Assembly (NCBI GenBank): GCA_963674695.2
Contig: CAXXGI010000002.1
Location: 768,001-832,000 of the forward strand
Direction: 5' to 3'
DNA from: a bacterium
GTDB lineage: Bacteria; UBA10199; 2-02-FULL-44-16; JAAZCA01
Length of the DNA: 64,000 nt
Positions 4,023 through 61,426 of the stretch are shown in pieces; position 1 is the first letter of the stretch; every line of letters starts with the position of its first letter. The notes beneath the pieces are model-generated. The model made no database searches. It saw nothing but the letters and a program-made list of their open reading frames with translations, and was not told the origin of the DNA. Position numbers and translations under genes: made by a program.

Positions 4023-4073
4023 ATATCTTGATATCGATGGTTTTCTATGATCGTATCACGGAGAGGTTTTCAC

Positions 4074-23418: not shown

Positions 23419-23419
23419 G

Positions 23420-26400
23420 ATGCGTCGTATTTTCGAGTTCGTCGTCAAACAACCGCTGTTTGTCAATCTCCTCACCCTGTTGGTGGTGGTGGCGGGGATG
23501 ATGGCGATGCTCAACCTCAACCGTGATGTTTTTCCGAACATTCAGCTCGACATCGTCATCATTCAGACCGCCTATCCCGGTTCGACGCCGAAGGAGATCG
23601 AGAAGCTCATCACCATCCCCATTGAGAAAGAGCTCAAAGAGGTGAGCGACATCAAGGAGATGACCTCGATTTCGCTCGAGGGGGCCTCCACGATTTCGAT
23701 CGAAATCGATCCTGACGCGCCTGACAAGAGTAAGGTGGTCACTGATATCCAGCGTGCGGTCGACCGGGTGGATGATCTCCCCGATGACCTCAAGGACAAG
23801 CCGATCGTGACCGAGATCGAGACGCGCAATCGGCCGGCGGTGGAGCTCTCGCTCTCGGGGGATCTTTCGCTCGAGGAGCTTTCGCGTCATGCGGAGGCGC
23901 TCGAGACGCGCATCCTCGACTTGCCCGATATCGCCAAGGTGAGTCTGAACGGGTGGCGGGACCGCGAGATCTGGGTGGAGGTCGATCCCCAGAAGGTGAG
24001 CGAGCTGTATCTGTCGTTGGCGCAGGTGGTCGAGGCGCTCAAAGAGCGCAATGTCAGCATTCCCGGCGGGACGATCTTCGAGGGGGGACGCGAATACTTG
24101 GTGCGCACCGTCGGCGAGTTTATGGACGCCGAGGGGACCAAGCCCGTGGTCATTCGCGCCAACGAGCGCGGCCATTGGATTCGCCTGAGCGATATCGCTC
24201 GCGTGACCGATACCTTCGAGCCGTTCACGACCATCCAGCGCACCAACGGCCATCGCGCCATCAACCTGGTGGCGGTCAAAAAAGAGCGTGGCGATGTGAT
24301 CGATGTGGTCGACGAACTCAAGGAGCTCGTCGCCAACTACAAGACGATTGCGCCGACCGAGCTCGACATTCGGTTGGTGAACGACATGTCTTATTATGTG
24401 CAGCGGCGGCTCAATGTGCTCAAGAGCAACGGCTATGTCGGGTTCGTCCTCGTGCTCGTCTGCCTCTTCCTCTTTTTGACGACGCGCATTGCCATCGCCA
24501 CTGCGGTGGGCATTCCCATCGCTTTTCTCACGACCTTTCTCGTCATGCAGTATGCCGGCATCACGATCAACCTGATCACGATGTTCGGTCTCATTATGGT
24601 ACTGGGCATGATCGTGGACGATGCGATCATCATCGCCGAGAACGTGCACCGTCACATCGAGGATGGCATGCCGATCCGAGAGGCGGGGGTGGCCGGTGCC
24701 TACGATGTTTGGCGCCCGGTGGCGGCTACGGTTATCACCACGATTGCGGCATTTGCCCCGCTCATGTTCATGACGGGGATTATGGGAAAGTTCATTCGCT
24801 TCATCCCGCTGGTCGTGATTCTAGCGCTTATCTCGTCGCTCCTGGAAGCGTTTATCATCCTCCCATCGCATCTGGTGGAGCTCGAGCGTCTGCCGCGCAT
24901 GCGGGCATTTGGTCGGCTTGGCAACGAATGGTTCACGCGCTGGTTCGATCGGCAGCGCGATCGGTACGTGCGTTGGTTGGGGACGCTTATCCGTCACCGT
25001 TGGCCCTTCATGTCGGGCGTGGTGTTCTTCTTCGTGATGTCGCTCTACGTCGGATTTGTGCATCTCCCCTTTGTCCTCTTTCCGCAGAAGGGGATCGAGG
25101 CCTTCTTCGTGCGTGCGAAAGCGCCGGTGGGCACACCCGTCGAAGAGATGGAACGGCGTATGGAGCCGCTGGAACGCCTGATCGAGGAGACGCTTCCCCA
25201 GAGCGAGTGGGACGACTATGTCACGCATGTGGGTATTCAGCAAAACGATGACATCGATCCCTTCGGCGAGCGCGCCAGTCACGTGGGGCAGATTCTGATT
25301 CACTTGAAACCCAGCACGCAGCGCGAGATGACCTCCGATGAACTGGTGGAGCTATTGCGAGCGCGCAAAGGGGAGCTGACGGGATTCACCGAAGTGATCT
25401 TCGAGAAGGTGCGCCATGGTCCGCCGGTGGGCAAGTCTGTTGTCATTCGCGTGCGCGGCGATGATTTCGACATCCTCGAGGCGGCCTCCGAGAAGATCAA
25501 ACAGTTTCTCACGGAGATGCCCGGCGTTTCCGATGCGAAGGATACCTACGAGCCGGGAAAGGATGAGATTCGTGTGGTGGTTGATGATGCGGCGGCGTCC
25601 CGCGCGGGACTCTCCGTTCAGGAGGTGGCGCTGGCGGTGCGCACCGCCTTCGATGGCATGATCGCCACGACGGTCAAGAAGACCGACGAGGAGATCGACG
25701 TGCGCGTGCGCTATCCGGATGCTTCCCGGTATAAGGAGGGAGCGATAGAAGGGGTGATGATTCCCAATGGAAACGGAAACCTCATACCGATCATATCGGT
25801 CGCTTCCTTCGCACGCGGTCCCGGCATCAATGCCATTCGCCACTACGATCGCAAGCGCACGATCATCGTCTCCGCCAGCGTCGACGAAAAACGTGCGACG
25901 TCGATCAGCGCGACCGAAGCGGTCGATCGCGAGTTTCACGACATCGGTCGCGAGTTTCCGGGCGTGACGCTCAACTACGGCGGAGAGTGGGAGAGCACGC
26001 AGGAGTCGTTCACCAGTCTCAAAATTGCCATGGTGATGGCGGCTTTCATCATCTTCATCGTCCTGGCCTTCCAGTTTCAGTCGCTCCTGCAGCCGGTGAT
26101 CGTCATGCTCGCGGTGCCCTACGGTTTTGTCGGCATCGTCTGGGCCTTCTTCTTCCATCTCGAACCAAAGAGCTTTCTGGCGATGGTCGGAGCGGTGGGG
26201 CTGGCGGGCGTGGTGGTCAATAATTCCATCGTGTTGATCGATTTCACCAACAAGGCCAAGGCGCGCGGAATGACGCTGCGCGAGGCGATCGTCGAGGCGG
26301 CACGCATTCGTCTCCGGCCGATCATCCTGACGACCGTGACGACCGTGCTGGGGCTCTTGCCCGTGGCCTACGGCATCATGGGGTTCGATCCCTTCATTGC

Positions 26401-26587
26401 CCCGATGGCGCTGGCCATCGGTTGGGGATTGGCCTTTGCAACGCTGTGCACGCTCTTTGTCACGCCCTGTCTCTATGCGGCGATCGACGATGTGCACTGT
26501 TGGGCAGGCACTCATGTCCCGTTTTTGCGCTGTGACCGCGAACGCAATGCGCAGATTCGCGAGCGCAACCATTCGGATGAAGCGTGA
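23420..26587 (+). CDS. RND efflux permease (AcrB/AcrD/AcrF family)
   Basis: GMIVDDAIIIAENV, GVVVNNSIVL, RLRPIILT; about 1055 aa. Confidence 0.92.
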   Translation: MRRIFEFVVKQPLFVNLLTLLVVVAGMMAMLNLNRDVFPNIQLDIVIIQTAYPGSTPKEIEKLITIPIEKELKEVSDIKEMTSISLEGASTISIEIDPDAPDKSKVVTDIQRAVDRVDDLPDDLKDKPIVTEIETRNRPAVELSLSGDLSLEELSRHAEALETRILDLPDIAKVSLNGWRDREIWVEVDPQKVSELYLSLAQVVEALKERNVSIPGGTIFEGGREYLVRTVGEFMDAEGTKPVVIRANERGHWIRLSDIARVTDTFEPFTTIQRTNGHRAINLVAVKKERGDVIDVVDELKELVANYKTIAPTELDIRLVNDMSYYVQRRLNVLKSNGYVGFVLVLVCLFLFLTTRIAIATAVGIPIAFLTTFLVMQYAGITINLITMFGLIMVLGMIVDDAIIIAENVHRHIEDGMPIREAGVAGAYDVWRPVAATVITTIAAFAPLMFMTGIMGKFIRFIPLVVILALISSLLEAFIILPSHLVELERLPRMRAFGRLGNEWFTRWFDRQRDRYVRWLGTLIRHRWPFMSGVVFFFVMSLYVGFVHLPFVLFPQKGIEAFFVRAKAPVGTPVEEMERRMEPLERLIEETLPQSEWDDYVTHVGIQQNDDIDPFGERASHVGQILIHLKPSTQREMTSDELVELLRARKGELTGFTEVIFEKVRHGPPVGKSVVIRVRGDDFDILEAASEKIKQFLTEMPGVSDAKDTYEPGKDEIRVVVDDAAASRAGLSVQEVALAVRTAFDGMIATTVKKTDEEIDVRVRYPDASRYKEGAIEGVMIPNGNGNLIPIISVASFARGPGINAIRHYDRKRTIIVSASVDEKRATSISATEAVDREFHDIGREFPGVTLNYGGEWESTQESFTSLKIAMVMAAFIIFIVLAFQFQSLLQPVIVMLAVPYGFVGIVWAFFFHLEPKSFLAMVGAVGLAGVVVNNSIVLIDFTNKAKARGMTLREAIVEAARIRLRPIILTTVTTVLGLLPVAYGIMGFDPFIAPMALAIGWGLAFATLCTLFVTPCLYAAIDDVHCWAGTHVPFLRCDRERNAQIRERNHSDEA

Positions 26588-27573: not shown

Positions 27574-28323
27574 TTATGTTTTTTTGAAGTGAAGGAGAAA
27601 TTCGTGGTTCCCCTTCGCGCCGGTGATGGGGGAGTCGGCCATGCCGCAGCAGTTCCAGCCGATCGCGGTGGCCTCTGCGCGGACGCGTTCGATCGCCTCC
27701 GTGTGGGCGTCAGGGTCGGTGACGATTCCACCCTTGCCGACGCGATCACGGCTGACCTCGAACTGCGGTTTGACCAGGGCAATGATCTCGGCTCCGGCTT
27801 CGAGAAAGACGTCGATCGTTCGCATCACGAGCGTGAGCGAGATGAAGGAGAGGTCGATGACCGCCAGCTCGACGCCGTCGGGAATCTTGTCCGGATCCAT
27901 GGTGCGGATGTTGGTGCGTTCGATCACGATAACGCGTTCGTCCTGCGCGATCTTCCATGCCAGTTGTCCGTAGCCGACGTCGATGGCGTAGACGCGCTGT
28001 GCTCCGTTTTGCAGGAGGCAGTCGGTGAATCCCCCGGTCGAGGCCCCCACATCCATGCAGATGCGGCCGTCGATGCTGCAGCCGAAGCTCTCGATGGCAT
28101 GGGCGAGTTTCACGCCGCCGCGACTGACGAAGGCGTGGTCCCGCCCGCGGATACGGATGGAGACAGCCGGATCGACGAGTGTTCCCGGCTTCTCCGAGGG
28201 TTCATCCTCCACGAGGACGCATCCGGCCATGATGAGCGCCTGCGCCTTTTGGCGCGTCGGAGTCAGCTCACGTTCGACCAGCAGCTCATCGATGCGGACC
28301 TTTTTTGATCGCTTCGTCGCCAT
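27574..28323 (-). CDS. tlyA: TlyA rRNA 2'-O-methyltransferase
   Basis: S4 domain, VSRGGVKL, DVGASTGGFTD, DLSFISL, KPQFE, G.KGN.EF. Confidence 0.93.
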   Translation of the reverse strand: MATKRSKKVRIDELLVERELTPTRQKAQALIMAGCVLVEDEPSEKPGTLVDPAVSIRIRGRDHAFVSRGGVKLAHAIESFGCSIDGRICMDVGASTGGFTDCLLQNGAQRVYAIDVGYGQLAWKIAQDERVIVIERTNIRTMDPDKIPDGVELAVIDLSFISLTLVMRTIDVFLEAGAEIIALVKPQFEVSRDRVGKGGIVTDPDAHTEAIERVRAEATAIGWNCCGMADSPITGAKGNHEFLLHFKKT

Positions 28324-38280: not shown

Positions 38281-39285
38281 ATGTTTTCTTACGTTATCAA
38301 ACGATTGCTCCTCATGATTCCGACTTTTTTCGGAATCGTGGTGGTGACCTTTGCGGTGGTGCACTTGGCCCCCGGTGATCCGGCCGAGCTCAAGGCCCAG
38401 TCGGCGCGTGAAGCGATCGCCTCCGACCAGGCCACACAGCAGATCGTCGCGGAGACGCGCGCGCTCTATGGCTTGGACAAACCGCTCGTCGTCCAGTTCG
38501 GGTTGTGGATGAAACGCGTGGTGACCCTCGATTTCGGGACCTCCTTTCGCGACCATCGCCCGGTGATCGACAAGATCGGCGATGCGCTCCCCATCACGCT
38601 CACGCTCAACGTATTGACCATCCTCATCGTCTATCTGGTCTCCATCCCGCTGGGTGTCTATACGGCGCTCAAGCCTCGGGGGGTTGCCGATCGCGCGGCG
38701 ACGGTGGGGCTGCTCGTCCTCTATTCGCTGCCGAGCTTCTGGGTGGCCATGATGCTCATCGTCGCCTTCGGTGGCGGCGGCGACTGGTTCAACTGGTTTC
38801 CGATCACCGGTTTTGTCTCCGATCATGCCGATCTCCTCCCCTGGTACGGGTGGGTGGCAAACGTCGCCTGGCACCTCGTGCTGCCGGTGGCCTGTCTCAC
38901 CTACGGCGGGTTCGCCTTCCTCTCGCGCTTTGCGCGCACGGCGATGCTCGAGGTGATTCGCCAGGACTATGTGCGAACCGCGCGCGCAAAAGGGCTCTCC
39001 GAGTGGTGCGTGGTGACCAAACACGCCCTGCGCAACGCGCTCATCCCGATGCTCACGCTCATGGGCACGCTCCTTCCCGCATTGCTCGGCGGGAGCGTGA
39101 TCGTCGAGCAGATCTTCGCCATTCCGGGCATGGGGCGGCTCGGGTTTGAATCGGTGCTCGCGCGTGACTATCCCGTGATCATGGCGATCGCTACAATTTC
39201 AGCGGTGCTCACGCTCCTGAGTATCCTCATTACCGATATCCTCTACGCGGTCGTCGACCCGCGTGTGACGTTTGGAAAACGATGA
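38281..39285 (+). CDS. oppB: Peptide ABC transporter permease
   Basis: APGDP, YVRTARAKGL, HALRNA, DPRV. Confidence 0.92.
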   Translation: MFSYVIKRLLLMIPTFFGIVVVTFAVVHLAPGDPAELKAQSAREAIASDQATQQIVAETRALYGLDKPLVVQFGLWMKRVVTLDFGTSFRDHRPVIDKIGDALPITLTLNVLTILIVYLVSIPLGVYTALKPRGVADRAATVGLLVLYSLPSFWVAMMLIVAFGGGGDWFNWFPITGFVSDHADLLPWYGWVANVAWHLVLPVACLTYGGFAFLSRFARTAMLEVIRQDYVRTARAKGLSEWCVVTKHALRNALIPMLTLMGTLLPALLGGSVIVEQIFAIPGMGRLGFESVLARDYPVIMAIATISAVLTLLSILITDILYAVVDPRVTFGKR

Positions 39286-40274
39286 TGCCTTCGCAGACCT
39301 ACAGCGCCATCGTGTGGCGACAGTTTCGAAAGAGTCGGCTGGCAACGGTGAGCCTCCTCTTCGTCGTCGTGCTCGCGTGCGTGGCGATCATGGCACCGCT
39401 GATCGCCAACGATCGCCCGCTCATCATGCGCGATGCACAAGGGTTCGCTGCTCCGGCGCTCCATCTTCCGGCGCGATTGCGCGGTGTGGATATGCAGCTC
39501 TTTACCCAAAATCCGCCGCCGGGGGTGTGGCTCATCATGCCGCCCATTCCGTATCGGCCCGGATCGTATGATCTGGGCGCGGTGCTCGTCTCCCCGTCGC
39601 GCGCACACCTTTTGGGGACCGACGGCGATGGTCGCGATGTGGCTTCGCAGATCGTTTGGGGAACGCGCATCTCGCTCTCGGTTGGACTTATCGCCGTAGG
39701 GTTGGCCGTCTTCATCGGTCTGATCCTGGGAGCGCTGGCTGGGTTCTACGGGGGATGGATCGATATCGTCATCTCCCGTTTTGTGGAGGTGATGCTCTGT
39801 TTCCCGACCTTCTTTCTCATCCTGGTGGTGCTCGCTTTTGTCGGCCCGTCGATCTATAACATCATGATCGTCATCGGCATCACCAGTTGGACCGGGACGG
39901 CGCGCCTGATACGAGCGGAGTTTCTACGCCTACGCTCGCGCGAGTTCGTTTTGGCAGCGACTGTCTCCGGCGCGCGGCACCTGCGCATCATGCGCCGGCA
40001 TCTGCTGCCCAACGCCATTGCGCCGATCCTGGTGGCGGCTCCCTTCGGTGTCGCCGGTGCGATCCTCGTCGAGGCGTCGCTCTCCTTTCTGGGCTTCGGC
40101 GTACCACCGACGGAGCCGAGCTGGGGAAGCATGCTGGCGCAGGCCCAGCGATTTATGGATATCGCGTGGTGGTTGACTTTGGCCCCGGGCTTTGCGATTT
40201 TCGCGACGATCATGGCGTATAACCTCATCGGAGAGACGCTGCGCGATGCGATCGATCCGAACCTGAAAACCTAA
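39282..40274 (+). CDS. oppC: Peptide ABC transporter permease
   Basis: HLLGTDGDGRD, RHLLPN, SFLGFG, PSWG. Confidence 0.92.
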   Translation: MMPSQTYSAIVWRQFRKSRLATVSLLFVVVLACVAIMAPLIANDRPLIMRDAQGFAAPALHLPARLRGVDMQLFTQNPPPGVWLIMPPIPYRPGSYDLGAVLVSPSRAHLLGTDGDGRDVASQIVWGTRISLSVGLIAVGLAVFIGLILGALAGFYGGWIDIVISRFVEVMLCFPTFFLILVVLAFVGPSIYNIMIVIGITSWTGTARLIRAEFLRLRSREFVLAATVSGARHLRIMRRHLLPNAIAPILVAAPFGVAGAILVEASLSFLGFGVPPTEPSWGSMLAQAQRFMDIAWWLTLAPGFAIFATIMAYNLIGETLRDAIDPNLKT

Positions 40275-40280
40275 GAGCGC

Positions 40281-40372
40281 GAGTCAGGCAAGTCAGGCGA
40301 GAAAGGTTTACAGCTTGAATCAAAGTCGTTTTTAGCCTGACTGGCTTGACTGGCTTGACTGGCCTGACTGGC
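40281..40372. repeat. 9-bp tandem microrepeats in inverted pair
   Basis: AGTCAGGC(A/G) x2 and (C/T)TGACTGGC x4. Confidence 0.8.
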
Positions 40373-40387
40373 AGATCTTGAGGTGTT

Positions 40388-41407
40388 GTGACATTACTCC
40401 AGGTCGACAATTTGCAGACCCACTTCTTCACCGACGATGGAGTGGTGCGCGCCGTCGACGGCGTCTCCTTCTCGATCGACCGCGGCGAGACTCTGGGGCT
40501 CGTCGGCGAGAGCGGATGCGGCAAGAGCGTGCTCTCGCTCTCGCTCATGCGCCTTATCTCCAATCCGCCCGGGCGGATCGTCGCCGGCGAGGTTGATTTT
40601 CAGCTGACCGAGAATGGCGGTCCGGTCGATCTCCTTAAGCTCAGCGAAAAACAGATGCGCATGGTGCGGGGCAAGCGCATGGCGATGGTCTTTCAGGAGC
40701 CGATGACCTCCTTGAATCCCGTCTACACGATCGGCAATCAGATCGGCGAGGCCCTGCACTTGCACGAGGGCGGCAGCTCCGCGCAGGTTCGCGCGCGCAT
40801 CATCGAGATGCTGGGGCTCGTGGGGATTCCGGCGCCGGAGCGTCGTCTCAAGGATTACCCGCATCAGCTCTCCGGCGGGATGCGTCAGCGCGCCATGATC
40901 GCTATGGCGCTGGCCTGTCGGCCGGATCTGCTGCTCGCCGATGAACCGACCACCGCGCTCGATGTGACAATTCAGGCGCAGATCCTGGATCTCATTCGGC
41001 GGCTGCAGTCGGAGTTGGGCATGGCGCTGGTGCTCGTGACGCACGATCTGGGCGTCGTGGCCGAGATGGCCTCGCGCGTGATCGTCATGTATGCGGGTCG
41101 TTTCGTGGAGATGGGCACGACCGATGAGATCTTTCGCGAGCCGATGCATCCGTATACGCAGGGCCTGCTTCGTTCCATTCCGCCGCTCGAACGGCTCCCG
41201 CGCGGGACGCGTCTGCCGACGATCCCGGGGATGGTGCCGGACCTGGCTCATCTCCCCAAGGGATGCGCCTTTGCCGATCGCTGTCCAAAGGTGCAGGCGC
41301 GCTGTCGCCAAGAGGAGGTCCCGGCCGACCCCTGTAACGTGGGTCGGCTGGTGCGGTGTTTTTATGCGGGTGCAGGCGAGAAAGGCCAGTCAGGCGGGAA
41401 CCGATGA
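40388..41407 (+). CDS. oppD: Peptide ABC transporter ATP-binding protein
   Basis: [28 protein letters not shown]. Confidence 0.93.
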
Positions 41408-44082: not shown

Positions 44083-44166
44083 GAGGGGGGCGTGATTCAC
44101 ATCACCGCGCGACGGTTTTTTCCCAAACGGGTTGCGTCACGTATTGTCATTTTTGTGCCTCAGTGA

Positions 44167-44199
44167 ACGAGTCACGAGTCACGAGTCACGAGTCACGAA
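44167..44199. repeat. 7-bp tandem microrepeat (ACGAGTC x4)
   Basis: Direct reading, immediately before the patatin start. Confidence 0.85.
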
Positions 44200-44201
44200 T
44201 T

Positions 44202-45605
44202 ATGGGTATTACGATCGTCCAAAAGAGTGATCTCACGAAGAAGCGGCCGCATGCGGTCAAGGCGCTCATTCTCTCCGGCGGGGCGGTGACCGGCGGTTCG
44301 TTCAAGGCCGGTGGCATCAAGGCGTTCAACGACTATCTCTCCGGATTTACGGTGAACGACTTCGATTGTTTCGTCGGCATCAGTTCCGGTAGCCTGCTCG
44401 TGACGCCCCTGGTGGGCGGCATCTCGCCCGAATCGGTCCTCAAGAGTCTCGATGGAACGAGCCGGCATTTTTCACCGCTGAGCGCGTGGCACTACTATCG
44501 TCCGAACGTCTCGGAACTCATCTCGCGGCCGATCTCCTTCATGATGCAGGCGGCCACCTGGTTGCCCGGAAGGGTGGCCGCGATCGTCGGTCAATCGGCG
44601 CGCTGGCCGGGGGGATTCATCGGTGCCATCCTCGATTTTGTGCGTCATCCGACGGATGCCTCCTATGAAGAGCTGATGGCGCCGCTGACGACGCTCATTC
44701 GAGGCGGTGATTTCCCGTCGCTGATGGGGCTTCTGCCTTCGGGCCTCTTCGATAACCGTCCCATCGAGCGCTATATTCGCACCAACATCGAGCGCAACGG
44801 GTTGACCAACGATTTTGTCGAGACCGAACGCCTCACGGGAAAACGCCTCTACATTTCGGCGATGCGCCTCGATGGCGCCAGCCGCGTCGTCTTCGGCCCG
44901 GACGAGGAGACCGATCTCTCGATCTCGGAGGCCATTCAGGCCTCCACCGCGATGCCGGGTTTTTATCGCCCGGCGACCATTCGCGGCGTCGATTACGTCG
45001 ATGGCGGCGTGCGCGAGACGGCGAACATCGATGTCGCCATCGACAAGGGGGCCGAGCTCATCGTCTGCTACAATCCCTTTCGTCCCTACGATTCCCAGGA
45101 GTTCGTCAGGGGGATGCAGCGCAGCAATCGCCGGCTCGCTTCGAGCGGCGTGCTGGCGGTGCTCAATCAGATCTTCCGCGCCTTCTTTCACTCGCGACTG
45201 ACCGTCGCCTTGGATCATTTTCGAGAGAGCGATCGTTTCCACGGCGACATCATCCTCATCGAGCCGCGCGCGGACGATCTCGACTTCTTTGCCCTCAACC
45301 CATTGGCGCTGGCCAACCGCGTTGAAGCGGCGCGCCTGGGGTTCGTCTCCGTGCGCAACTCCATCGAGGAACGCTTCGACGAGATGGCCGAAATCCTCGC
45401 CGCCTATGGTATCACCATGAGTCGCTCGGGAGTGGATGCTGAATATCAGTGTATCGCGGAACCGGATGCGACCGAGCAGGATGTGCAGTTCCTTCTGGAA
45501 GGGCGCAGCCGTCTTCCGGCGAAGAAGGCGGCCAAACGGACGAGACGGGGTCGTTCGAAGACGAAGAAGAAGACAAAGACAACGAGGAAGAAGAGCACGC
45601 GATGA
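44202..45605 (+). CDS. Patatin-like phospholipase
   Basis: SGGAVTG, GISSG (GxSxG), AS.AMPG, YVDGG; basic C-terminal tail. Confidence 0.88.
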   Translation: MGITIVQKSDLTKKRPHAVKALILSGGAVTGGSFKAGGIKAFNDYLSGFTVNDFDCFVGISSGSLLVTPLVGGISPESVLKSLDGTSRHFSPLSAWHYYRPNVSELISRPISFMMQAATWLPGRVAAIVGQSARWPGGFIGAILDFVRHPTDASYEELMAPLTTLIRGGDFPSLMGLLPSGLFDNRPIERYIRTNIERNGLTNDFVETERLTGKRLYISAMRLDGASRVVFGPDEETDLSISEAIQASTAMPGFYRPATIRGVDYVDGGVRETANIDVAIDKGAELIVCYNPFRPYDSQEFVRGMQRSNRRLASSGVLAVLNQIFRAFFHSRLTVALDHFRESDRFHGDIILIEPRADDLDFFALNPLALANRVEAARLGFVSVRNSIEERFDEMAEILAAYGITMSRSGVDAEYQCIAEPDATEQDVQFLLEGRSRLPAKKAAKRTRRGRSKTKKKTKTTRKKSTR

Positions 45606-47050
45606 AATCTCGGCAACTCGACATCTTTGGAGCGCCTCCTGTACAGAAGGATTCCGCGTCCAAGCCGAAGCCAAAGTCCAAGGCCAAGACAAAAGCAGAG
45701 CCGAAGAAACGCCGGGCCTCGTCGCGCTCGCGTACGGCCAAGACCGCGCCGATGATCGTGGATGCGTATAATGCAGCCAGTCAGGCCAGCCAGGCCAGTC
45801 AGGCCAGTCAGGCCAGTCAGGCCAGTCAGGCCAGTCAGGCGAGTGCGGAGGCGGAGAAGGGGCCTCGTATCTATTCGATCGCCGAGATCACCGATTCGAT
45901 CAAGGGGCTCATCGAGCGGAACTACACCGATGTCTGGGCCTGTGGTGAAGTGACCGACTTTCGCAACCGGACCGGCCGGCACTTTTACTTCGCGCTCAAG
46001 GACGACAAGGCTAAGATTCGCGCCATCATCTTCGGCGCGGGGCAGCGGCGATTGCCCTTCGAGTTGACCGATGGTCTGGAACTCATCTGTCATGGGCGCC
46101 TCAACGTCTATCCGCTCGGCGGCAGCTATTCGCTGGTGATCGATCACTGCGAGCCCAAGGGGATCGGCGCGCTGCAGCTCGCGTTCGAACAGCTCAAAAA
46201 GAAACTCGAGGCCGAAGGCCTCTTCGCGCGTGAGCGCAAACGCCCGTTGCCGTTTCTGCCGCGACGCATCGGCGTGATCACCTCGCCGACCGGTGCGGCT
46301 GTGCGCGACATCATTCAGGTTCTCACGCGCCGCTTCCCCGGCATCGAGGTGCTCATCGATCCGGTGCGCGTGCAGGGAGAGGGATCCGCACCCGAGATCG
46401 CCGCGGCCATCGATCGCATGGGCGCACGCACCGATCTCGATTGCCTCATCGTCGGGCGCGGCGGCGGATCCATCGAGGACCTCTGGGCCTTCAATGAAGA
46501 GATTGTGGCGCGCGCCATCGTGGCATCAAACGTGCCGGTGATCTCGGCGGTTGGGCATGAGATCGATTTCACCATCGCGGATTTTGTGGCGGATGTGCGG
46601 GCGGCCACGCCCTCGGCTGCGGCCGAGATCGCGGTGCCGGTGCGCAGCGAGTTGATGCAGATGCTCGCGGATCGCCGACGGCAGTTGGGCTTGGCCCTGC
46701 GCGGGGGCCTGGAGCGTCGGGTCGATGCCGTCGCGCGTCTCTTCCATCGCCTCGGTGACCCGAGTCGGCGCCTTCCCGATCTGATGCAGCGCATCGATGC
46801 CCTCTCCCGCAGCCTTCGGTTCGGCATGGAGGTGGGTGTTGAGAAGCGCGCGCAGCGGTTTCAGGCGTTGGTGGCCAACCTAGGGCACCTCTCGCCACTC
46901 GGGATTTTGGCGAAGGGATATGCCGTTGTGGAGGATGAGCGCGGGCACACCGTCCGGGCGGCGCGCGGGCTCAAGGTGGATCAGGAGCTGGCCATACGCC
47001 TGCATAAGGGGGCTGTGCGTGCCCGCGTCCGTAAAATCGTTGACGGATGA
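45602..47050 (+). CDS. xseA: Exodeoxyribonuclease VII large subunit with N-terminal extension
   Basis: GHFYF-type OB fold, TSPTGAAVRD, RGGGSIEDLWAFN, GHEIDFTIAD, TPSAAAE; (ASQ)7 extension. Confidence 0.92.
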   Translation: MKSRQLDIFGAPPVQKDSASKPKPKSKAKTKAEPKKRRASSRSRTAKTAPMIVDAYNAASQASQASQASQASQASQASQASAEAEKGPRIYSIAEITDSIKGLIERNYTDVWACGEVTDFRNRTGRHFYFALKDDKAKIRAIIFGAGQRRLPFELTDGLELICHGRLNVYPLGGSYSLVIDHCEPKGIGALQLAFEQLKKKLEAEGLFARERKRPLPFLPRRIGVITSPTGAAVRDIIQVLTRRFPGIEVLIDPVRVQGEGSAPEIAAAIDRMGARTDLDCLIVGRGGGSIEDLWAFNEEIVARAIVASNVPVISAVGHEIDFTIADFVADVRAATPSAAAEIAVPVRSELMQMLADRRRQLGLALRGGLERRVDAVARLFHRLGDPSRRLPDLMQRIDALSRSLRFGMEVGVEKRAQRFQALVANLGHLSPLGILAKGYAVVEDERGHTVRAARGLKVDQELAIRLHKGAVRARVRKIVDG

Positions 47051-47094
47051 GGGGGTGGTGCAGTAAGGGTCGTATAATGATAACGGAGGGGGCG

Positions 47095-47328
47095 ATGACG
47101 GAAAAACGCAGCTTTGAAAAGGCGATGACCGAACTCGAGGGGATCGTGCGGCAGCTCGAATCGAACGACCTGACGCTCGACGATTCCCTCAAGGCCTTCG
47201 AAAAGGGAGTGACGCTCACGCGCGAGTGTGAAACGTATCTCACCGAGGCGAAGGGCAAGGTCGAAAAACTCGTGCGCGACGCGGATGGCGTGGAAAAGAC
47301 CGAGGCGTTCGAACCGCGCGAAGCGTGA
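47095..47328 (+). CDS. xseB: Exodeoxyribonuclease VII small subunit
   Basis: SFEKAMTELE.IV..LE...L.LDDSL..FEKG. Confidence 0.93.
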   Translation: MTEKRSFEKAMTELEGIVRQLESNDLTLDDSLKAFEKGVTLTRECETYLTEAKGKVEKLVRDADGVEKTEAFEPREA

Positions 47329-47434
47329 ACGGTGAACGGTGAACGGTGAACGGTGAACGGTGAACGGTGAACACTGCAGTGTAACACGATTTTGCTTACG
47401 GTTTACGGTTCACCGTTTACGGTTTACGGTTCAC
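47325..47434. repeat. 7-bp tandem microrepeats in inverted pair (GTGAACG x6-7; degenerate GGTTYAC run)
   Basis: Direct reading; same unit at 21075-21113 and 48743-48763. Confidence 0.9.
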
Positions 47435-47450
47435 AAGTCACGGAAAAATC

Positions 47451-48332
47451 ATGAATCTCAAAACATATCTGGCAGAACGCAAGGGGTGGGTCGAGGCGGA
47501 GCTCAAGCGCTCGATCGATGATCCGTCCATTCCGCAGCAGCTGGCGAAAGCGATGCGCTACAGTCTGGAGGCGGGCGGCAAGCGCTTGCGCCCGGTGCTG
47601 GCGTTTGCCGCGGCCGAGGCGGTGGGGAGCGATGCGCGTCGGGCCATGCCCGCGGCCGTCGCCCTCGAGATGATCCACACCTTCTCGCTCATCCACGATG
47701 ATCTCCCGGCCATGGACGACGACTCGCTGCGCCGGGGAAAACCCACCAACCACAAGGTCTTCGGTGAAGCCACAGCGATTCTCGCCGGCGATGCGCTCCT
47801 GGCCGAGGCCTTCTCGGCCCTGGCGCACGCGGCGGTCGATGTTTCCCCTGTGCAGCTCATCGAGGTCATCGCCGATATCGCCGATGCCACCGGCTGTCGC
47901 GGCATGACCGGTGGCCAGCAGATCGACATCGATGCGACGGGAGAGACCATCTCGCTCGAAGCGCTCGAGGGTCTGCACCGGTACAAGACCGGGGCGCTCA
48001 TTCGGGTTGCCCTCACCTCCGGCGCGAAATTGGCTGGCGCCGATGCAGAGCAGGTGGAGCGTCTTGCGCATTTTGGCGAAGCGATCGGGCTCGCCTTTCA
48101 GATCGCCGACGATGTGCTCGACATCGAGGGCGATCAATCGCTCATGGGCAAGGACATCGGAAGCGATGAGGGACAGGACAAATCCACCTATCCGTCGATC
48201 ATCGGGCTGGATGCGTCCAAACGGCGTGCAGCCGCCCTCATCGACGAGGCGGTCGAGACGATCGCTCCCTTCGGCGAGAAGGGTGAACCGCTCGGCCAGA
48301 TCGCCCGCTACATCATCGAGCGAACATCATGA
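47451..48332 (+). CDS. ispA: Geranyl/farnesyl diphosphate synthase
   Basis: GGKRLRP, HDDLPAMD...RRG, GQQID, KTGAL, FQIADDVLD. Confidence 0.93.
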   Translation: MNLKTYLAERKGWVEAELKRSIDDPSIPQQLAKAMRYSLEAGGKRLRPVLAFAAAEAVGSDARRAMPAAVALEMIHTFSLIHDDLPAMDDDSLRRGKPTNHKVFGEATAILAGDALLAEAFSALAHAAVDVSPVQLIEVIADIADATGCRGMTGGQQIDIDATGETISLEALEGLHRYKTGALIRVALTSGAKLAGADAEQVERLAHFGEAIGLAFQIADDVLDIEGDQSLMGKDIGSDEGQDKSTYPSIIGLDASKRRAAALIDEAVETIAPFGEKGEPLGQIARYIIERTS

Positions 48333-48754
48333 GACATCACTGCGCTGAAATAGACGTCGCTACCAAGGATCCCGTCGAGTTTCTCGACTGCACGGAACGC
48401 GTCTGCGAGGTGGTGGCCAAAAGCGGTATTCGCAACGGATTGGCCACGGTCGCCACGCAGCACACCACGGCCGCGGTGCGCATCACTGAACGGTGCGAGC
48501 GGTTGCAACAGGATATGCGCACGTGGCTTAACGAGACGATCCCGGCGGCACCCTATCGGCACGATGAACAGACCGTCGACGATCGTCCCAATGCGCGTGG
48601 CCACCTCATGGCCATGCTCATGCCGCACGCCGAGACGATTCCGATCGTCGACGGCAAGCTCAAACTGGGGCAGTGGCAGTCGATCTTCTTCGTCGAGGTG
48701 GACGGTCCGCGCCCCGAGCGCCGTTTGTTTGTGCAGGTGATTGGTGAACGGTGA
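48329..48754 (+). CDS. yjbQ: YjbQ-family protein
   Basis: HTTA, YRHD, NA.GH, LGQWQ.IFFVE.DGPR; ATGA overlap with ispA. Confidence 0.9.
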   Translation: MRHHCAEIDVATKDPVEFLDCTERVCEVVAKSGIRNGLATVATQHTTAAVRITERCERLQQDMRTWLNETIPAAPYRHDEQTVDDRPNARGHLMAMLMPHAETIPIVDGKLKLGQWQSIFFVEVDGPRPERRLFVQVIGER

Positions 48755-48779
48755 ACGGTTCACGAGTAGTGGAGGTGGT

Positions 48780-50159
48780 ATGAACACACAGGATATGCAG
48801 TCGTTCTTTGCCGATGAAGAGACGATCGATCGCGACGTCTCCGTCATCTTCACCTATTTCATCGAGACGCTTACATCCGTGAAGGAGGCGGCGGCCTCCC
48901 TCTGCCAGGAGACCTCCACGGCGCAGTGGAAGCGCCCGAACGTCGACGAGGATTTTCGCCCGCGTCATGCGGCCAAGGTGATCTCGCTCGAGCCGATCGA
49001 CGAGGGAGCCGCGTCGGTCTTTTCGAGCACCGCGGTTTTTGGCTCGCGGTTTTCGCGCGCGCGCGTGCGCATCGCACACCCGATCGAAAACTTCGGCGCA
49101 CGCCTGCCCAACCTGCTCACCGTCGCCATGGGCGAAGGCGCCTTCTTCAGCCACGGCATCACGTCGATCAAACTCATCGACATCGAGTTTCCGGATAGCT
49201 TCTTGGCAGCCTTCCAGGGACCGCAGTTCGGGACCGCAGGCCTGCGCCGGATCATCGATGTCTTCGATCGCCCGCTCTTCTTCGGCGTGGTCAAACCCAA
49301 CGTTGGGCTCGATCCCGCAGGCTTTGCGGAGCTTGCACGCGAGGCGTGGGTCGGCGGGCTCGACGTCGCCAAGGATGATGAGATGCTCGCCGATACGGCG
49401 TATTCTCCCTTTGCCCAGCGCATGCAGCTCGTGGGGCAAGCGCGGCAGGAAGCTGAGCAAATCACCGGACGGCCGAAGATTTTTATCGCCAATATCACCG
49501 ATGAAGTCGATCGCATCATCGAGCTGCATGACATCGCGGTCGAAAATGGAGTCAATGCGGTCATGCTCAACGTCATGGCCGTGGGGCTCTCCGCAGTGCG
49601 TATGCTGCGCAAACGGTCGCAGGTGCCGATCATCGCTCACTTCGATTGCATTGCGCCCATGTCGCGGCATCCCTATTTCGGCGTCTCCACGACGGTGCTG
49701 ACGAAACTTCAGCGCCTGGCCGGTTGCGATGCGATCATCATGCCGGGGTTTGGCGAGCGAATGATGACCTCCGAGGAGGAGGTGTTGGCCAACGTGCAGG
49801 AATGCGTTGCGCCCATGGGGTCGATCGCATCCGTCCTGCCGGTTCCGGGCGGAAGCGATTGGGCGGGGACGTTGCCGCAGGTCTATGAACGCTTGCGCAC
49901 GATCGACTTTGCGCTCGTTCCGGGGCGAGGCGTCTTCGGCCATCCGCAGGGCCCGCGCGCCGGGGCGGAGAGCCTTGTCCAGTCGTGGGAGGCCACCGTC
50001 GCGCGCATCGATCTGGCCGAGTATGCCGAGCAGGCGCCGCAGCTGCGTGCCGCGATCGAGGCCTTTAGCGCAGCAGGCGGACAGGACGATACGACCGATG
50101 GAGAGGCGCTCATACATGGGTATACGGGGGCGGTACTCTCGTCGGTGATGCGCCATTGA
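48780..50159 (+). CDS. RuBisCO-like protein, form IV (resembles the IV-Photo clade)
   Basis: STAQWKR..VDEDFR, GVVKPNVGL, DVAKDDE, PVPGGS, VPGRGVFGHP; GGAGGTGG RBS. Confidence 0.9.
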   Translation: MNTQDMQSFFADEETIDRDVSVIFTYFIETLTSVKEAAASLCQETSTAQWKRPNVDEDFRPRHAAKVISLEPIDEGAASVFSSTAVFGSRFSRARVRIAHPIENFGARLPNLLTVAMGEGAFFSHGITSIKLIDIEFPDSFLAAFQGPQFGTAGLRRIIDVFDRPLFFGVVKPNVGLDPAGFAELAREAWVGGLDVAKDDEMLADTAYSPFAQRMQLVGQARQEAEQITGRPKIFIANITDEVDRIIELHDIAVENGVNAVMLNVMAVGLSAVRMLRKRSQVPIIAHFDCIAPMSRHPYFGVSTTVLTKLQRLAGCDAIIMPGFGERMMTSEEEVLANVQECVAPMGSIASVLPVPGGSDWAGTLPQVYERLRTIDFALVPGRGVFGHPQGPRAGAESLVQSWEATVARIDLAEYAEQAPQLRAAIEAFSAAGGQDDTTDGEALIHGYTGAVLSSVMRH

Positions 50160-50227
50160 TGCATCCCGCGTGCCGTTGTTCTCGAAGGGAGTTTTCATGA
50201 ACGCGTTGCCTGTGCGAGCGATGCTCC

Positions 50228-50379
50228 AGGCTGCTGACAAAGTCCAGAAGAGATGATTATCTCATGATTGTCATTCTGAGGCGTCAGCCGAAGAATCCCT
50301 TGTTGACGATGTTTGTAGGGGATTCTTCGCTTCGCTCAGAATGACAATACTATTCGTCATTGGGGTTTGTCATCAACCT
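50228..50379. mobile_element. 152-bp MITE-like element containing a REP-like palindrome (50267-50348)
   Basis: Imperfect 14-bp TIR AGGCTGCTGACAAA / TTTGTCATCAACCT; flanked by 39-bp direct repeats (50188-50226, 50389-50427). Confidence 0.65.
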
Positions 50380-50397
50380 CATATTTGAGGAGTTTTT

Positions 50398-51285
50398 ATG
50401 AACGCGGCGCCTGTGCGAGCGATGCTCGTCCTAATTCTGCTCGTCATTCCATCGATGGTCTTCGCCAAAATTCCGCCGAAGATCGAGAAGGTCGTCTTCT
50501 CGCAGTTCGTGCCGGCGCTGTCGAATCCGGGGATCATCTCCGCCTATACCGATCCGGATCCGGCGAAGATGCGGACCTATGTCGTGATCGAGCGTGGCGG
50601 CATTCCGGCCGAGCGCGCGACGTTCTTTATCTCCTGGAGTGACTACGACTATCGCGGTGCGGTCATCAATCTTGCGAAGAACGATCGGATCACGACGCGT
50701 CGCGGTGGGGTCTACACCTATCTCCAGAAGGGGGATGTCATGGCCGTGACCGGCGTGCGCGTCTTTGGGTCGACGGTCTACGTGAAACTCCTTTCCGCAG
50801 ACGTTTATCGCCCCGAAGCGCGGGAGAAGGATAAACGCTTTGCTCGGGTGTCGGTGGAGGTCGGGTTCAAATTTCCCAAAGAAGTGTTTAAAACGGATGA
50901 TGCCGATACGGTGATCAAGACGATGCTCGAATGGTTCACGCCTTTCTCCTCTCGCGATGAGGCCTTTGCTTATGCGGAAACCATCGGCGGCAATACCGCA
51001 GAGATAGCGGGCCAGGAGTGGGAGCAGCTGAAGGCCGAGGAGCGCGCGGCGCGGGAGGCCAGGCGCAAGCGCAAGGCTTCGACTGCCGTCGGCGATGAAT
51101 CGCCGGCAGATGCCGCCGCAGCGGAGCATGTCGAGCAGGAGGGACAGCGCAAGCAGGTCAAAAAACTCGATGAAAAGATCGAAGCGCTTCAGCGCCAGAT
51201 GGAGGAAAACGCCGCGGAGATGGAACGGCTCAAACAGGAGATGAAGGCGAATGCGCAGGCCGAGGATGCGTCGCCGAAAAAGTGA
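50398..51285 (+). CDS. Secreted hypothetical protein with C-terminal coiled coil
   Basis: GAGGAG RBS, signal peptide (VFA), heptad-rich tail. Confidence 0.7.
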   Translation: MNAAPVRAMLVLILLVIPSMVFAKIPPKIEKVVFSQFVPALSNPGIISAYTDPDPAKMRTYVVIERGGIPAERATFFISWSDYDYRGAVINLAKNDRITTRRGGVYTYLQKGDVMAVTGVRVFGSTVYVKLLSADVYRPEAREKDKRFARVSVEVGFKFPKEVFKTDDADTVIKTMLEWFTPFSSRDEAFAYAETIGGNTAEIAGQEWEQLKAEERAAREARRKRKASTAVGDESPADAAAAEHVEQEGQRKQVKKLDEKIEALQRQMEENAAEMERLKQEMKANAQAEDASPKK

Positions 51286-58989: not shown

Positions 58990-60444
58990 ATGGATCCATT
59001 GACGATAGGTGTGATGATTTGTGTCGCCCTTTTTGCTGCGAGTTGCACCGGGAAACCTTCGGAGAAGGTGCCGGTCGATGGCGATGAGGATCTGCCGATC
59101 GGCGGCGATGAAGATCTCGATGATGATGGCGAAGCAGTCGATGAAGTCGCTGATGGTCCGGATCCGGAAGAAGAGGTGGAGTCGGAACGCACGCGCCCCG
59201 ATGGCTTCGTCCGTCTGCCCGATCCTCGCGATCGCGATGCGGTCTGTCGGAATGTGGTGGACATCGATCTGACCGGAGATCGCCTCGCCTTCGTCTGCGG
59301 CTATCCGACCAACCGCGTCGGGACCTACGATGTGCGCACGTTCGAGGAGGGGGAGGGTGATCCCGAGGCGGTTTCGGTGAACTTCGCTGGTGCATTCGCT
59401 GGTCATGTCGATAGTCTCGAAGGTGGCCTCGAGGCCGTGCAGCTCATCGAGTATGGCGCTGACTATCTGATTCCATTCGCTAACAAAACGGAGAATGAAG
59501 AGGAAATTTTCAGCGGCTTTGCAACCGTCACCGGCGATGGCCAGTTGGTGCCGACCGTTTCCATCGATACCGTTTCCTTCGCGAACGATGTCCCGATGGA
59601 GATGGACGTTCATCATATCCGTTCGGCGGTCGTCTATGACAATCGTCTTTGGGTTGCCGCAACCGATCGCGAGACGGATCACGGTATCGTCTATTCCTAC
59701 AGCTTTCTCATGAACGGTGCGATCAATCCGCGCAGCGCGCGCATGCCCATTCCGACGACGGGGATCTTTCCGACGAGCCTGACGATGATCGATGAGGATG
59801 CCGGCCTGGTCGCGGTGCTCAACCTCGCCGGGGAATACCCCCATGGGACCATGGGCCTGAATCCCACGAAGCTCGATCTGCTCGATCTCAATGCGACGGA
59901 CCCGGCTTCGGCGCTGGTGGAATCGGTCGATTTACGCGTGGTGCCCATGATGCCCTCTCCGGAGCTCGCCTTCGATGCCGAACACATGCAGGCGGCGATC
60001 GCGTTCGCCGGGATGGATCCGGGAATTCTCATCGTCGATCTGCACGCGGGACGCCGTGCGATTCACAATGTCATCCACATGAATGATTGTGGGCTGGAAT
60101 CTGAGGTGAAGGCGCTGGCCGTTCGAGACAATAGGGTCTGTGCCGCGCTCGAGGGGGGAAAACTCCTCTGTTTTGACCATGCCGATGTTCCGACACTTAG
60201 GGGGACGTTTCCTGCGCGCCTCATCGATGCGCAGATGCCCGTCGGGGCGATCGCCCTCGGTCGGAACGACTATCTCTACGCGGTTGTCGACGACGCCCAT
60301 ATCGAGGCGATCGATCTCAATGCGGTGGAGGACGAGGCGCTCACCTGCGGAACGGTGATCGTCGAAAAGCCGGAGGTCGATGGCGATGAGGATAACGATG
60401 CCATCGACGTCGATCCGGATTACGAACATATCTCAAAGCTGTGA
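58990..60444 (+). CDS. Acidic lipoprotein, probable beta-propeller
   Basis: Lipobox AASC, acidic linker, repeated short beta strands. Confidence 0.65.
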   Translation: MDPLTIGVMICVALFAASCTGKPSEKVPVDGDEDLPIGGDEDLDDDGEAVDEVADGPDPEEEVESERTRPDGFVRLPDPRDRDAVCRNVVDIDLTGDRLAFVCGYPTNRVGTYDVRTFEEGEGDPEAVSVNFAGAFAGHVDSLEGGLEAVQLIEYGADYLIPFANKTENEEEIFSGFATVTGDGQLVPTVSIDTVSFANDVPMEMDVHHIRSAVVYDNRLWVAATDRETDHGIVYSYSFLMNGAINPRSARMPIPTTGIFPTSLTMIDEDAGLVAVLNLAGEYPHGTMGLNPTKLDLLDLNATDPASALVESVDLRVVPMMPSPELAFDAEHMQAAIAFAGMDPGILIVDLHAGRRAIHNVIHMNDCGLESEVKALAVRDNRVCAALEGGKLLCFDHADVPTLRGTFPARLIDAQMPVGAIALGRNDYLYAVVDDAHIEAIDLNAVEDEALTCGTVIVEKPEVDGDEDNDAIDVDPDYEHISKL

Positions 60445-60466
60445 TGTCTGCAAAATGTGGAATCGG

Positions 60467-60497
60467 AAGGGTCGGCCGTCGCCGGCCCTTTTCTTTT
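60467..60497 (+). terminator. Rho-independent terminator
   Basis: AAGGGTCGGC/GCCGGCCCTT then T run. Confidence 0.7.
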
Positions 60498-60556
60498 GCG
60501 TTGGATGCGGAAAGCCGATTGACGCCGCGGTCGTGGATGCGCTAGCCATGCGGGCC

Positions 60557-61426
60557 ATGAACGCCATCACCATTTCTGCCCCCGCCAAGGTCAACACCGT
60601 CCTGCGCGTCGTTGGGCGCCGGCCGAACGGCTATCACGACCTCGAGATGGTCATGGTGCCGCTGTCCGTCGCCGACGAGATCAGTTTGACTAAACGCGAT
60701 TCGGGGATCGAGCTTGTCTGCGATGGGGGTTCCGACGAGGGAATGCAGGCCGAGCGCAACCTCGCCTGGCGTGCCGCGCGTGCCCTTCAGGAGGCCGCGG
60801 GGATCTCCTCCGGGGTGCGCATCGAGTTGACCAAACGCGTTCCCATCGCCGCGGGGTTGGGCGGCGGCTCGAGCGATGCCGCGGCGGTCCTGCGCGGGCT
60901 CAATGAGTTGTGGGAGCTGGGATGGGAGCCACAGCGGCTGGCCGAAATTGGCGTACATCTGGGGGCGGACGTGCCCTTCTTCTGTTTCGGGCGTTCGGCC
61001 TGGGTCGGGGGGATCGGCGATCGCATCGACCCCCTCGAAAAATTTCCAAACCTCTCGTTATTATTGGTGAATCCGAATATCTCCGTGGCCACCCCCTGGG
61101 TCTATGGCCAGTGGGATGAACTGCAGAACCAACGCAAAAACAAGGGGTTGACTGGTCATGAGGCCGGTGCTAGGGTCCGCCCGCTTTTTCAGGGTGTTTC
61201 GGATGTGATCGAATCCCTGCACAACGATCTCGAAGCCGTCACGATTCCGGCTTATCCGATCATTGCCGATATCAAGCGCGCGCTGCAGGAGAACGGGGCA
61301 GCGGGAACGCTCATGTCCGGGAGTGGCCCGACCGTCTTCGGCCTCTTTCGCGATCGCGACCAGCGCGACCGGGCGGCACAGCGCATCGATGGCGATGCGT
61401 GGCGAGTGATCCCAGCCGACGTGTAA
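60557..61426 (+). CDS. ispE: 4-diphosphocytidyl-2-C-methyl-D-erythritol kinase
   Basis: APAKVN, GYH, PIAAGLGGGSSDAA, GADVPF, NDLE, MSGSG. Confidence 0.95.
   Translation: MNAITISAPAKVNTVLRVVGRRPNGYHDLEMVMVPLSVADEISLTKRDSGIELVCDGGSDEGMQAERNLAWRAARALQEAAGISSGVRIELTKRVPIAAGLGGGSSDAAAVLRGLNELWELGWEPQRLAEIGVHLGADVPFFCFGRSAWVGGIGDRIDPLEKFPNLSLLLVNPNISVATPWVYGQWDELQNQRKNKGLTGHEAGARVRPLFQGVSDVIESLHNDLEAVTIPAYPIIADIKRALQENGAAGTLMSGSGPTVFGLFRDRDQRDRAAQRIDGDAWRVIPADV

Follow-up and report, generated by a model that had tools for sequence, protein, structure and literature searches.

A YjbQ and RuBisCO-like protein gene pair in the dxs position behind ispA: a candidate source of 1-deoxy-d-xylulose 5-phosphate in a bacterium that lacks Dxs

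The 64,000-nucleotide stretch of bacterial DNA analysed here (the window; positions 768,001 to 832,000 of contig CAXXGI010000002.1, assembly GCA_963674695.2) carries, directly behind ispA, a gene for the UPF0047 protein YjbQ and a gene for a form IV RuBisCO-like protein (RLP), in the place usually taken by dxs, which encodes the synthase of DXP (1-deoxy-d-xylulose 5-phosphate). The array lies entirely on the + strand and opens with a patatin-like phospholipase gene (44163 to 45605; PF01734, E 2e-19), followed by xseA (exonuclease VII large subunit, 45602 to 47050; TIGR00237, 450.5 bits), xseB (exonuclease VII small subunit, 47047 to 47328; TIGR01280, 77 bits; NF002140, 80.8 bits), ispA (farnesyl diphosphate synthase, 47451 to 48332; PF00348; NF045485, 379.5 bits against a cut-off of 275), yjbQ (48329 to 48754; PF01894, 123.7 bits, cut-off 27; TIGR00149, 108.9 bits, cut-off 67.75) and the RLP gene (48780 to 50159; PF00016, 173 bits; PF02788, 28 bits). 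The patatin stop codon and the xseA ATG overlap as ATGA, as do the ispA stop and the yjbQ start, and to judge from this second overlap yjbQ is translationally coupled to ispA. The RLP ATG stands 26 nucleotides past the yjbQ stop and is preceded by a GGAGG box, and a scan for promoters and terminators found nothing above chance within the operon. The original prediction, made from the window alone, had described xseA to RLP as co-directional, the ispA/yjbQ overlap, the lack of a dxs gene downstream and the presence of ispE in the window; all four descriptions hold, with the patatin-like gene now placed at the head of the array and ispE, a kinase of the MEP (2-C-methyl-d-erythritol 4-phosphate) pathway, at 60380 to 61426 on the + strand (TIGR00154, 225.3 bits, cut-off 138.7). 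The order patatin-xseA-xseB-ispA is kept in relatives.

The gap between xseB and ispA is filled by a 117-nucleotide palindrome (47324 to 47440) made of GTGAACG heptamers and their complement, with a predicted fold of -65.2 kcal/mol (z -8.3). A 14-mer from it occurs at 13 loci in the genome to which the window belongs, one of them at the yjbQ stop (48744 to 48765), and the arrays look like a dispersed palindromic element of the repetitive extragenic palindromic (REP) kind. The hairpin may set ispA-yjbQ-RLP apart from xseAB as a unit of transcription or mRNA stability. Beyond the RLP gene, 240 nucleotides that contain an inserted repeat separate it from a conserved gene (50398 to 51285, + strand) for a 295-residue secreted protein. 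We considered the product as a third enzyme of the system and rejected it, given its signal peptide, its coiled-coil tail, the lack of any Pfam or NCBIfam match and the separation by the repeat. The repeat itself (50188 to 50427) consists of an insert with perfect 14-nucleotide inverted repeats (50267 to 50280 and 50335 to 50348), flanked on both sides by a 39-nucleotide direct duplication of the ribosome-binding site and first codons of the secreted-protein gene; it resembles a small insertion of the miniature inverted-repeat transposable element (MITE) type.

Among solved structures, the RLP is closest to that of Chlorobaculum tepidum (1TEL/1YKW; E 7e-154, 515 bits) and to RLP2 of Rhodopseudomonas palustris (2QYG; E 3e-147, 494 bits), with 3NWR next at 225 bits and the MtnW structure 2OEK at 174 bits. 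These closest matches support its assignment to the IV-Photo clade, the Chlorobaculum type to which it had originally been predicted to belong. Three other identities were rejected on their scores: a true RuBisCO of form III (TIGR03326, 235 bits, cut-off 497), the DK-MTP-1-P (2,3-diketo-5-methylthiopentyl-1-phosphate) enolase MtnW of the IV-YkrW clade (NF007095, 212.6 against 409; TIGR03332, 185.9 against 513.6) and the 3-oxo-isoapionate-4-phosphate decarboxylase OiaX, which is still the best NCBIfam match (NF042437, 275 bits against 700). Across 16 sequences the motifs K198-D-D200-E201 (KDDE) and K172-P-N174 do not vary, and the residue after H287 is a phenylalanine; we take these positions to be the counterparts of K201/D203/E204, K175/K177 and H294/R295, respectively, in RuBisCO. 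A tree of 94 rows, from which we disregarded seven wrong-strand open reading frames (on a branch of length 3.1), resolves the remainder into three groups only. The C. tepidum and R. palustris proteins share the fold and both the KDDE and K-P-N motifs, but Dxs is present in those organisms, and an RLP welded to ispA is confined to the window's phylum. The accessible text of PMC5893883 gives IV-Photo RLPs no assigned reaction since their discovery.

YjbQ is a full-length member of its family, above both curated cut-offs and with conserved His, Glu and Asp residues; every one of its relatives in the PDB is named a hypothetical protein. To the Escherichia coli member of the family the accessible part of PMC3010111 assigns no physiological reaction; all that is known of it there is that it suppresses thiE and pdxB defects when present in multicopy. 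The copy studied here differs in being coupled to an RLP and in being one of three paralogues in its genome.

That genome (3.03 Mb in three contigs, 100% complete) yields no recognisable Dxs: the dxs equivalog hidden Markov model (HMM) TIGR00204 has no match, the Dxs N-terminal Pfam domain PF13292 reaches only E 0.24, and tblastn with five true Dxs proteins from relatives gives a best E of 0.009. It does encode Dxr (497 bits), IspG (434 bits), IspH (288 bits), IspE (225 bits), ThiG (359 bits) and PdxJ (323 bits), and a search of it for HMG-CoA reductase found none. With DXP consumers present and neither Dxs nor a mevalonate route, the organism requires DXP from an unrecognised source; three consumers (Dxr, ThiG and PdxJ) without a known supply are a real gap and no assembly artefact. 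Long or split transketolase-like genes occur in relatives, and in many of these split or fused forms score 124-227 bits on the dxs model. We rejected them as cryptic Dxs because they are absent from the window's family and from its genome, in which neither the dxs HMM nor tblastn detected any transketolase-, Dxs- or pyruvate dehydrogenase (PDH) E1-like protein of the thiamine diphosphate (ThDP) type.

This last absence bears in both directions on the idea that DXP, or the downstream precursors of isoprenoids, thiamine and pyridoxal phosphate (PLP), come from other cells or from a promiscuous ThDP enzyme, with the RLP irrelevant to DXP. The missing transketolase-like gene suggests that central metabolism is reduced or unusual, and genomes throughout the phylum are small (1.6-3.7 Mb); the same absence leaves no ThDP protein of the three types just named as a promiscuous candidate. 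The full set of DXP-consuming enzymes is retained, and we know of no uptake system for DXP, a phosphorylated intermediate, which counts against an external supply. Even with the suppressors of E. coli dxs known in aceE and ribB (PMC3424233, PMC10663253) on its side, we regard this explanation as very unlikely. Among about 4,400 complete genomes, PMC10663253 reports 181 species with the MEP pathway and no Dxs, 172 of them unexplained; its supplementary species list holds isolates only and no member of the window's group.

The gap extends well beyond one genome. In a first sample of 41 genomes, the window's included, Dxr exceeds its cut-off in 40 and Dxs in eight; in a larger sample of 65 genomes of this candidate phylum, all at least 90% complete and all from one class, 13 carry Dxs. 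The related metagenome-assembled genomes (MAGs) go under vague NCBI labels (Deltaproteobacteria, Myxococcales, Bdellovibrio sp., Pseudomonadota). Of 32 RLP-bearing relatives, 29 have the RLP gene directly after ispA, with or without yjbQ between them, the three others being two unlinked loci and one next to the edge of its contig; the linkage persists down to 44% RLP identity. An arrangement that recurs to this extent is not due to chance. In E. coli the order is xseB-ispA-dxs-yajO, and in relatives without an RLP ispA is followed by tlyA or other genes; we conclude that the RLP fills the usual dxs slot. The locus thus shares with the E. coli operon the order and direction of xseA-xseB-ispA, and differs from it in that yjbQ-RLP replaces dxs. 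The window's own tlyA (27574 to 28323; TIGR00478, 259 bits), a gene found elsewhere after dxs, lies 20 kb from the ispA locus on the opposite strand. An intact dxs elsewhere in the genome, combined with a lack of conserved linkage, had been named beforehand as the outcome that would speak against a role in DXP supply; we found no dxs in a complete genome, and ispA-yjbQ-RLP throughout the phylum. The proposal that RLP and YjbQ form a two-enzyme module stands as regards the conserved linkage, but not as regards an obligatory YjbQ in the operon, since yjbQ is present between ispA and RLP in 23 of the 29 linked loci and missing in six.

Seven genomes of the first sample have neither Dxs nor an RLP, and in all seven Zn-dependent polyol-type dehydrogenases adjoin ispA. 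These alcohol dehydrogenases (ADHs) resemble the Tdh, IolM and GatD-like families but fall under all cut-offs. In the 65 genomes, the first of them (ADH1) and the RLP are almost perfectly exclusive: 44 have the RLP only, 19 ADH1 only, one both (with a divergent RLP of 38% identity) and one neither (with Dxs present). All 52 Dxs-less genomes carry either the RLP (36) or ADH1 only (16). Both states coexist within four families (f6, f11, f16 and f23) and one genus (g20), so the switch between them must have occurred repeatedly. The ADH gene lies beside ispA, often in the ispA-tlyA interval, in 13 of the 18 ADH-positive genomes in which this could be determined (it could not in two others). RLP-less relatives with one or two of the dehydrogenases between ispA and tlyA, in some cases with a DeoC/LacD aldolase as well, are seen at L047, L049, L050, L053 and L157-L169, from genomes G024, G030, G035, G036, G042-G046, G050, G051, G055, G056 and G063. 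One relative has a co-directional xseA-xseB-ispA-aldolase-ADH1 array, and in several lineages ADH1 is accompanied by a second paralogue, ADH2, and by a DeoC/LacD-type aldolase (71-76% identity; four of the 41 genomes). On these grounds we consider the Zn polyol-dehydrogenase module a second candidate substitute for Dxs; the yajO gene that follows dxs in E. coli, an oxidoreductase annotated as a DXP synthase, offers a loose precedent for it. Homologues of ADH1 occur in other groups, including MAGs of Nitrospinota, NC10 and Ktedonobacterales, and give no usable tie to the published Dxs-less isolates.

A few loci in relatives have further features. An ADH-type genome (L170, G055:C24) encodes a divergent RuBisCO-family protein with 37-38% identity to the window's RLP. 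In family f7 (L047:4574-6034, L157-L159) the genes that come after ispA-ADH1 encode a decarboxylase of the prenyl-FMN-dependent UbiD family and a haem-binding protein; at L053:5255-7025 of G036, ispA has as neighbours a gene for a class II aldolase and one for an MDR dehydrogenase; and at G040:C15:10807-13211 a class II aldolase directly adjoins dxs.

A possible substrate for both modules comes from the salvage of S-adenosylmethionine (SAM) by-products. MtnA exceeds its equivalog cut-off in 38 of the 41 genomes, those without an RLP included, and the window's genome has both MtnA (TIGR00512, 441.9 bits, cut-off 279) and MtnP (TIGR01694, 345 bits, cut-off 274.85), so that the phosphorylase and the isomerase for methylthioadenosine (MTA), which had been put forward as something to look for, are both there. 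Acireductone dioxygenase (ARD/MtnD) is above its cut-off in two of the 41 only, in each case beside a class II aldolase, with two more weak matches below it and none in the window's genome. A class II aldolase is present in this genome and in its whole family; as the sole one of the genome it was tried as MtnB and rejected (77.7 against a cut-off of 137 bits). The scarcity of MtnD and this sub-cut-off aldolase leave the MtnA product with no canonical sink in most genomes. The aldolase gene lies next to that of an HpnL-like membrane protein (L155:6693-8427), and the evidence for a spermidine synthase in the genome is weak (51.7 bits).

The same facts would suit a role in salvage only, in which the MtnA product is removed by the RLP or, in other members, by the dehydrogenase/aldolase module, so as to detoxify MTA and 5'-deoxyadenosine or to recycle sulfur, while DXP is made by an unrecognised enzyme found throughout the phylum. 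MtnP and MtnA are near-universal and MtnD is rare, the RLP and the ADH module behave as mutually exclusive alternatives, and a module is also present in 12 of the 13 Dxs-positive genomes, as expected of a function independent of Dxs. The pairing of aldolase with alcohol dehydrogenase moreover resembles the dihydroxyacetone phosphate (DHAP) shunt, which consists of MtnP or MtnK, MtnA, the class II aldolase Ald2 and an alcohol dehydrogenase (PMC5893883). The upstream enzymes are the same here, the window's genome has a class II aldolase, and RLP-less relatives have aldolase and ADH; yet the aldolase of the window's genome is unlinked to mtnA or the RLP, and the ADHs of the relatives are polyol-dehydrogenase types (Tdh, IolM, GatD-like) and not typical aldehyde reductases. 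ADH1 stands at ispA in family f7, and in one of the genomes with a dehydrogenase at ispA (G024) neither aldolase class was detected. Salvage would also give no reason for the placement of both modules between ispA and tlyA, and would leave 52 of the 65 genomes without a candidate source of DXP. We think salvage alone an unlikely explanation.

We tentatively favour, at a little short of an even chance, the reading that ispA-yjbQ-RLP is a Dxs-independent module for DXP supply, in which the RLP would isomerise the MtnA product to DXP or a precursor of it with the help of YjbQ. We base this on the DXP gap in 52 of the 65 genomes, the two exclusive and non-homologous modules in the dxs slot, the orphan MtnP-MtnA pair and the precedent within the RLP family. 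MtnP and MtnA would convert 5'-deoxyadenosine, MTA or both to 5-deoxy- or 5-methylthio-d-ribulose-1-phosphate. The IV-Photo RLP would then use a carbamylated lysine and Mg2+ for an enolisation that moves the carbonyl from C2 to C4, a 1,3-isomerisation like that of the Rhodospirillum rubrum RLP, giving DXP directly from the 5-deoxy substrate and 1-methylthio-xylulose-5-phosphate from the methylthio one. YjbQ might correct a ribulose epimer or tautomer, or might do what the cupin does in R. rubrum and remove the methylthio group. In the window's family, the class II aldolase could add de novo 5-deoxy-pentulose-1-phosphate made from DHAP and acetaldehyde. In relatives without an RLP, reduction at C2 and oxidation at C4 by the dehydrogenase module would lead to the same product. 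A DXP-supply function for the slot behind ispA, filled by Dxs in most bacteria and in this phylum by either YjbQ-RLP or the dehydrogenase module, is in our view the most economical reading and seems to us nearly an even proposition, still on the doubtful side. The broader statement, that the phylum runs its MEP pathway without Dxs and draws all its DXP from these two exclusive modules, both starting from 5-deoxy- or 5-methylthio-pentulose-1-phosphate, we consider somewhat unlikely.

The precedent is the MTA-isoprenoid shunt of R. rubrum and R. palustris, in which a DeepYkr RLP converts 5-methylthio-ribulose-1-phosphate (MTRu-1-P) to 1-methylthio-xylulose-5-phosphate (MTXu-5-P) and a cupin then yields DXP (PMC6302742, PMC5893883). 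The likeness lies in the presence of MtnP and MtnA, in a form IV RLP as the candidate 1,3-isomerase and in a proposed product that feeds Dxr. The differences are several: the RLP here belongs to the Photo clade; no cupin adjoins it (its neighbours are ispA, YjbQ and the secreted protein; a cupin elsewhere was not searched for); its gene is joined to ispA at the dxs position; and the route would be the sole source of DXP, whereas the shunt runs beside Dxs. The Photo-type RLP2 of R. palustris catalyses the same conversion of MTRu-1-P to MTXu-5-P in vitro, slowly (PMC5893883). Our literature search found no paper that combines a RuBisCO-like protein with YjbQ and none that reports a route to DXP through a Photo RLP or 5-deoxyribulose; among the matches listed, none combined a RuBisCO-like protein with ispA.

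Outside the phylum, we scanned one genome per species and took the best 80 RLP loci, of which 17 come from the window's phylum and 63 from elsewhere. yjbQ stands directly upstream of the RLP in 33 of these 63 (Chromatiaceae, Ectothiorhodospiraceae, one Planctomycetia MAG and one Chloroherpetonaceae MAG) and ispA at none of them, from which we conclude that yjbQ-RLP is an old two-gene module and that its fusion to ispA is specific to the phylum. In the 5.0 Mb of the Planctomycetia MAG (locus L111, genome G071), of completeness unknown, nothing matches Dxs at E <= 1e-100, and its yjbQ-RLP is flanked by genes without known function. The other 30 loci, some of them at contig edges, come mostly from Desulfobacterota, Chloroflexota, Spirochaetota and Chlorobiaceae, and their RLP genes neighbour those for UPF0261, class II aldolase, RpiB, metallo-beta-lactamase and SorC-regulator proteins, xylose-isomerase-like barrels and ABC transporters of the sugar type. 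Such loci look like an uncharacterised sugar-phosphate pathway. The IV-Photo-like RLPs without yjbQ, at 55-59% identity and in Spirochaetota too, include those at L074, L075, L092, L097, L100, L102, L105 and L115.

A number of observations weigh against the DXP-supply reading. Close homologues of the RLP (55-59% identity) in Desulfobacterota and Chloroflexota reside in these sugar-catabolic clusters, so the chemistry within the clade may differ. In four of five genomes tested from other phyla (Allochromatium palmeri, Ectothiorhodospira magna, Chromatium okenii and a Chloroherpetonaceae MAG), yjbQ-RLP coexists with Dxs, and there it has no isoprenoid neighbours; the fifth genome is the Planctomycetia MAG. 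Within the phylum, the RLP is found in nine of 13 genomes with Dxs and 36 of 52 without it, 69% either way, and the anti-correlation between RLP and dxs expected in the original prediction was not borne out. Its broader idea of a bypass of Dxs is accordingly left with a mixed result: the missing dxs, the retained Dxr, ThiG and PdxJ, the presence of MtnP and MtnA, the conserved linkage and the different module that RLP-less genomes have in the ispA-tlyA slot speak for it, while the lack of anti-correlation and a YjbQ that is not obligatory do not. That each of the 52 Dxs-less genomes has at least one of the two modules lends little statistical support, as 64 of the 65 genomes carry a module regardless of Dxs. 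Many RLP-bearing genomes without Dxs lack a class II aldolase, and the flux of SAM by-products may be too small to serve as the sole source of DXP. Conserved gene order taken by itself is weak evidence of a shared pathway, since the conserved xseB-ispA operon already joins unrelated genes. R. palustris lacking RLP2 shows no defect in MTA metabolism and the rate with MTRu-1-P in vitro is negligible, according to the accessible text of PMC5893883, and our search found no published enzyme assay of any Photo RLP with 5-deoxyribulose-1-phosphate.

Several of these points would be expected if RLP and YjbQ had a function unrelated to DXP, acting on another ketose or acid-sugar phosphate or in thiol and sulfur stress, with a place after ispA that is historical, as that of xseB beside ispA is. 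The phototrophs that carry yjbQ-RLP with Dxs and without isoprenoid genes, the sugar-cluster contexts of close homologues and the OiaX model as best NCBIfam match, though below its cut-off, are consistent with such a function, as is the thiol/sulfur stress phenotype of the C. tepidum RLP mutant cited in PMC5893883. A historical accident sits poorly with an ispA linkage kept across the phylum (29 of 32), and the exclusive, non-homologous module in the same slot points to selection having favoured co-expression with ispA; the DXP gap, too, would stay unexplained. We judge this alternative quite unlikely.

If the broader statement on the phylum is correct, IV-Photo RLPs and UPF0047/YjbQ would each gain their first physiological reaction, and there would be an answer of some generality for part of the Dxs-less bacteria still unexplained. 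The origin of DXP in such bacteria, the IV-Photo RLP reaction and the role of the widespread UPF0047/YjbQ family can all be addressed with two or three cloned genes. The exclusive dehydrogenase module serves the hypothesis as an internal control and is in its own right a second, independent candidate route. Because Dxs is a regulated bottleneck, a Dxs-independent and ThDP-free route to DXP would be of interest to terpenoid pathway engineers.

Elsewhere in the window, 4047 to 6538 encodes a PreT/PreA-like NAD-dependent dihydropyrimidine dehydrogenase pair, and ordinary genes include those of a resistance-nodulation-division (RND) efflux pump (23393 to 26587) and an Opp/Dpp-type ABC transporter (38281 to 41407).

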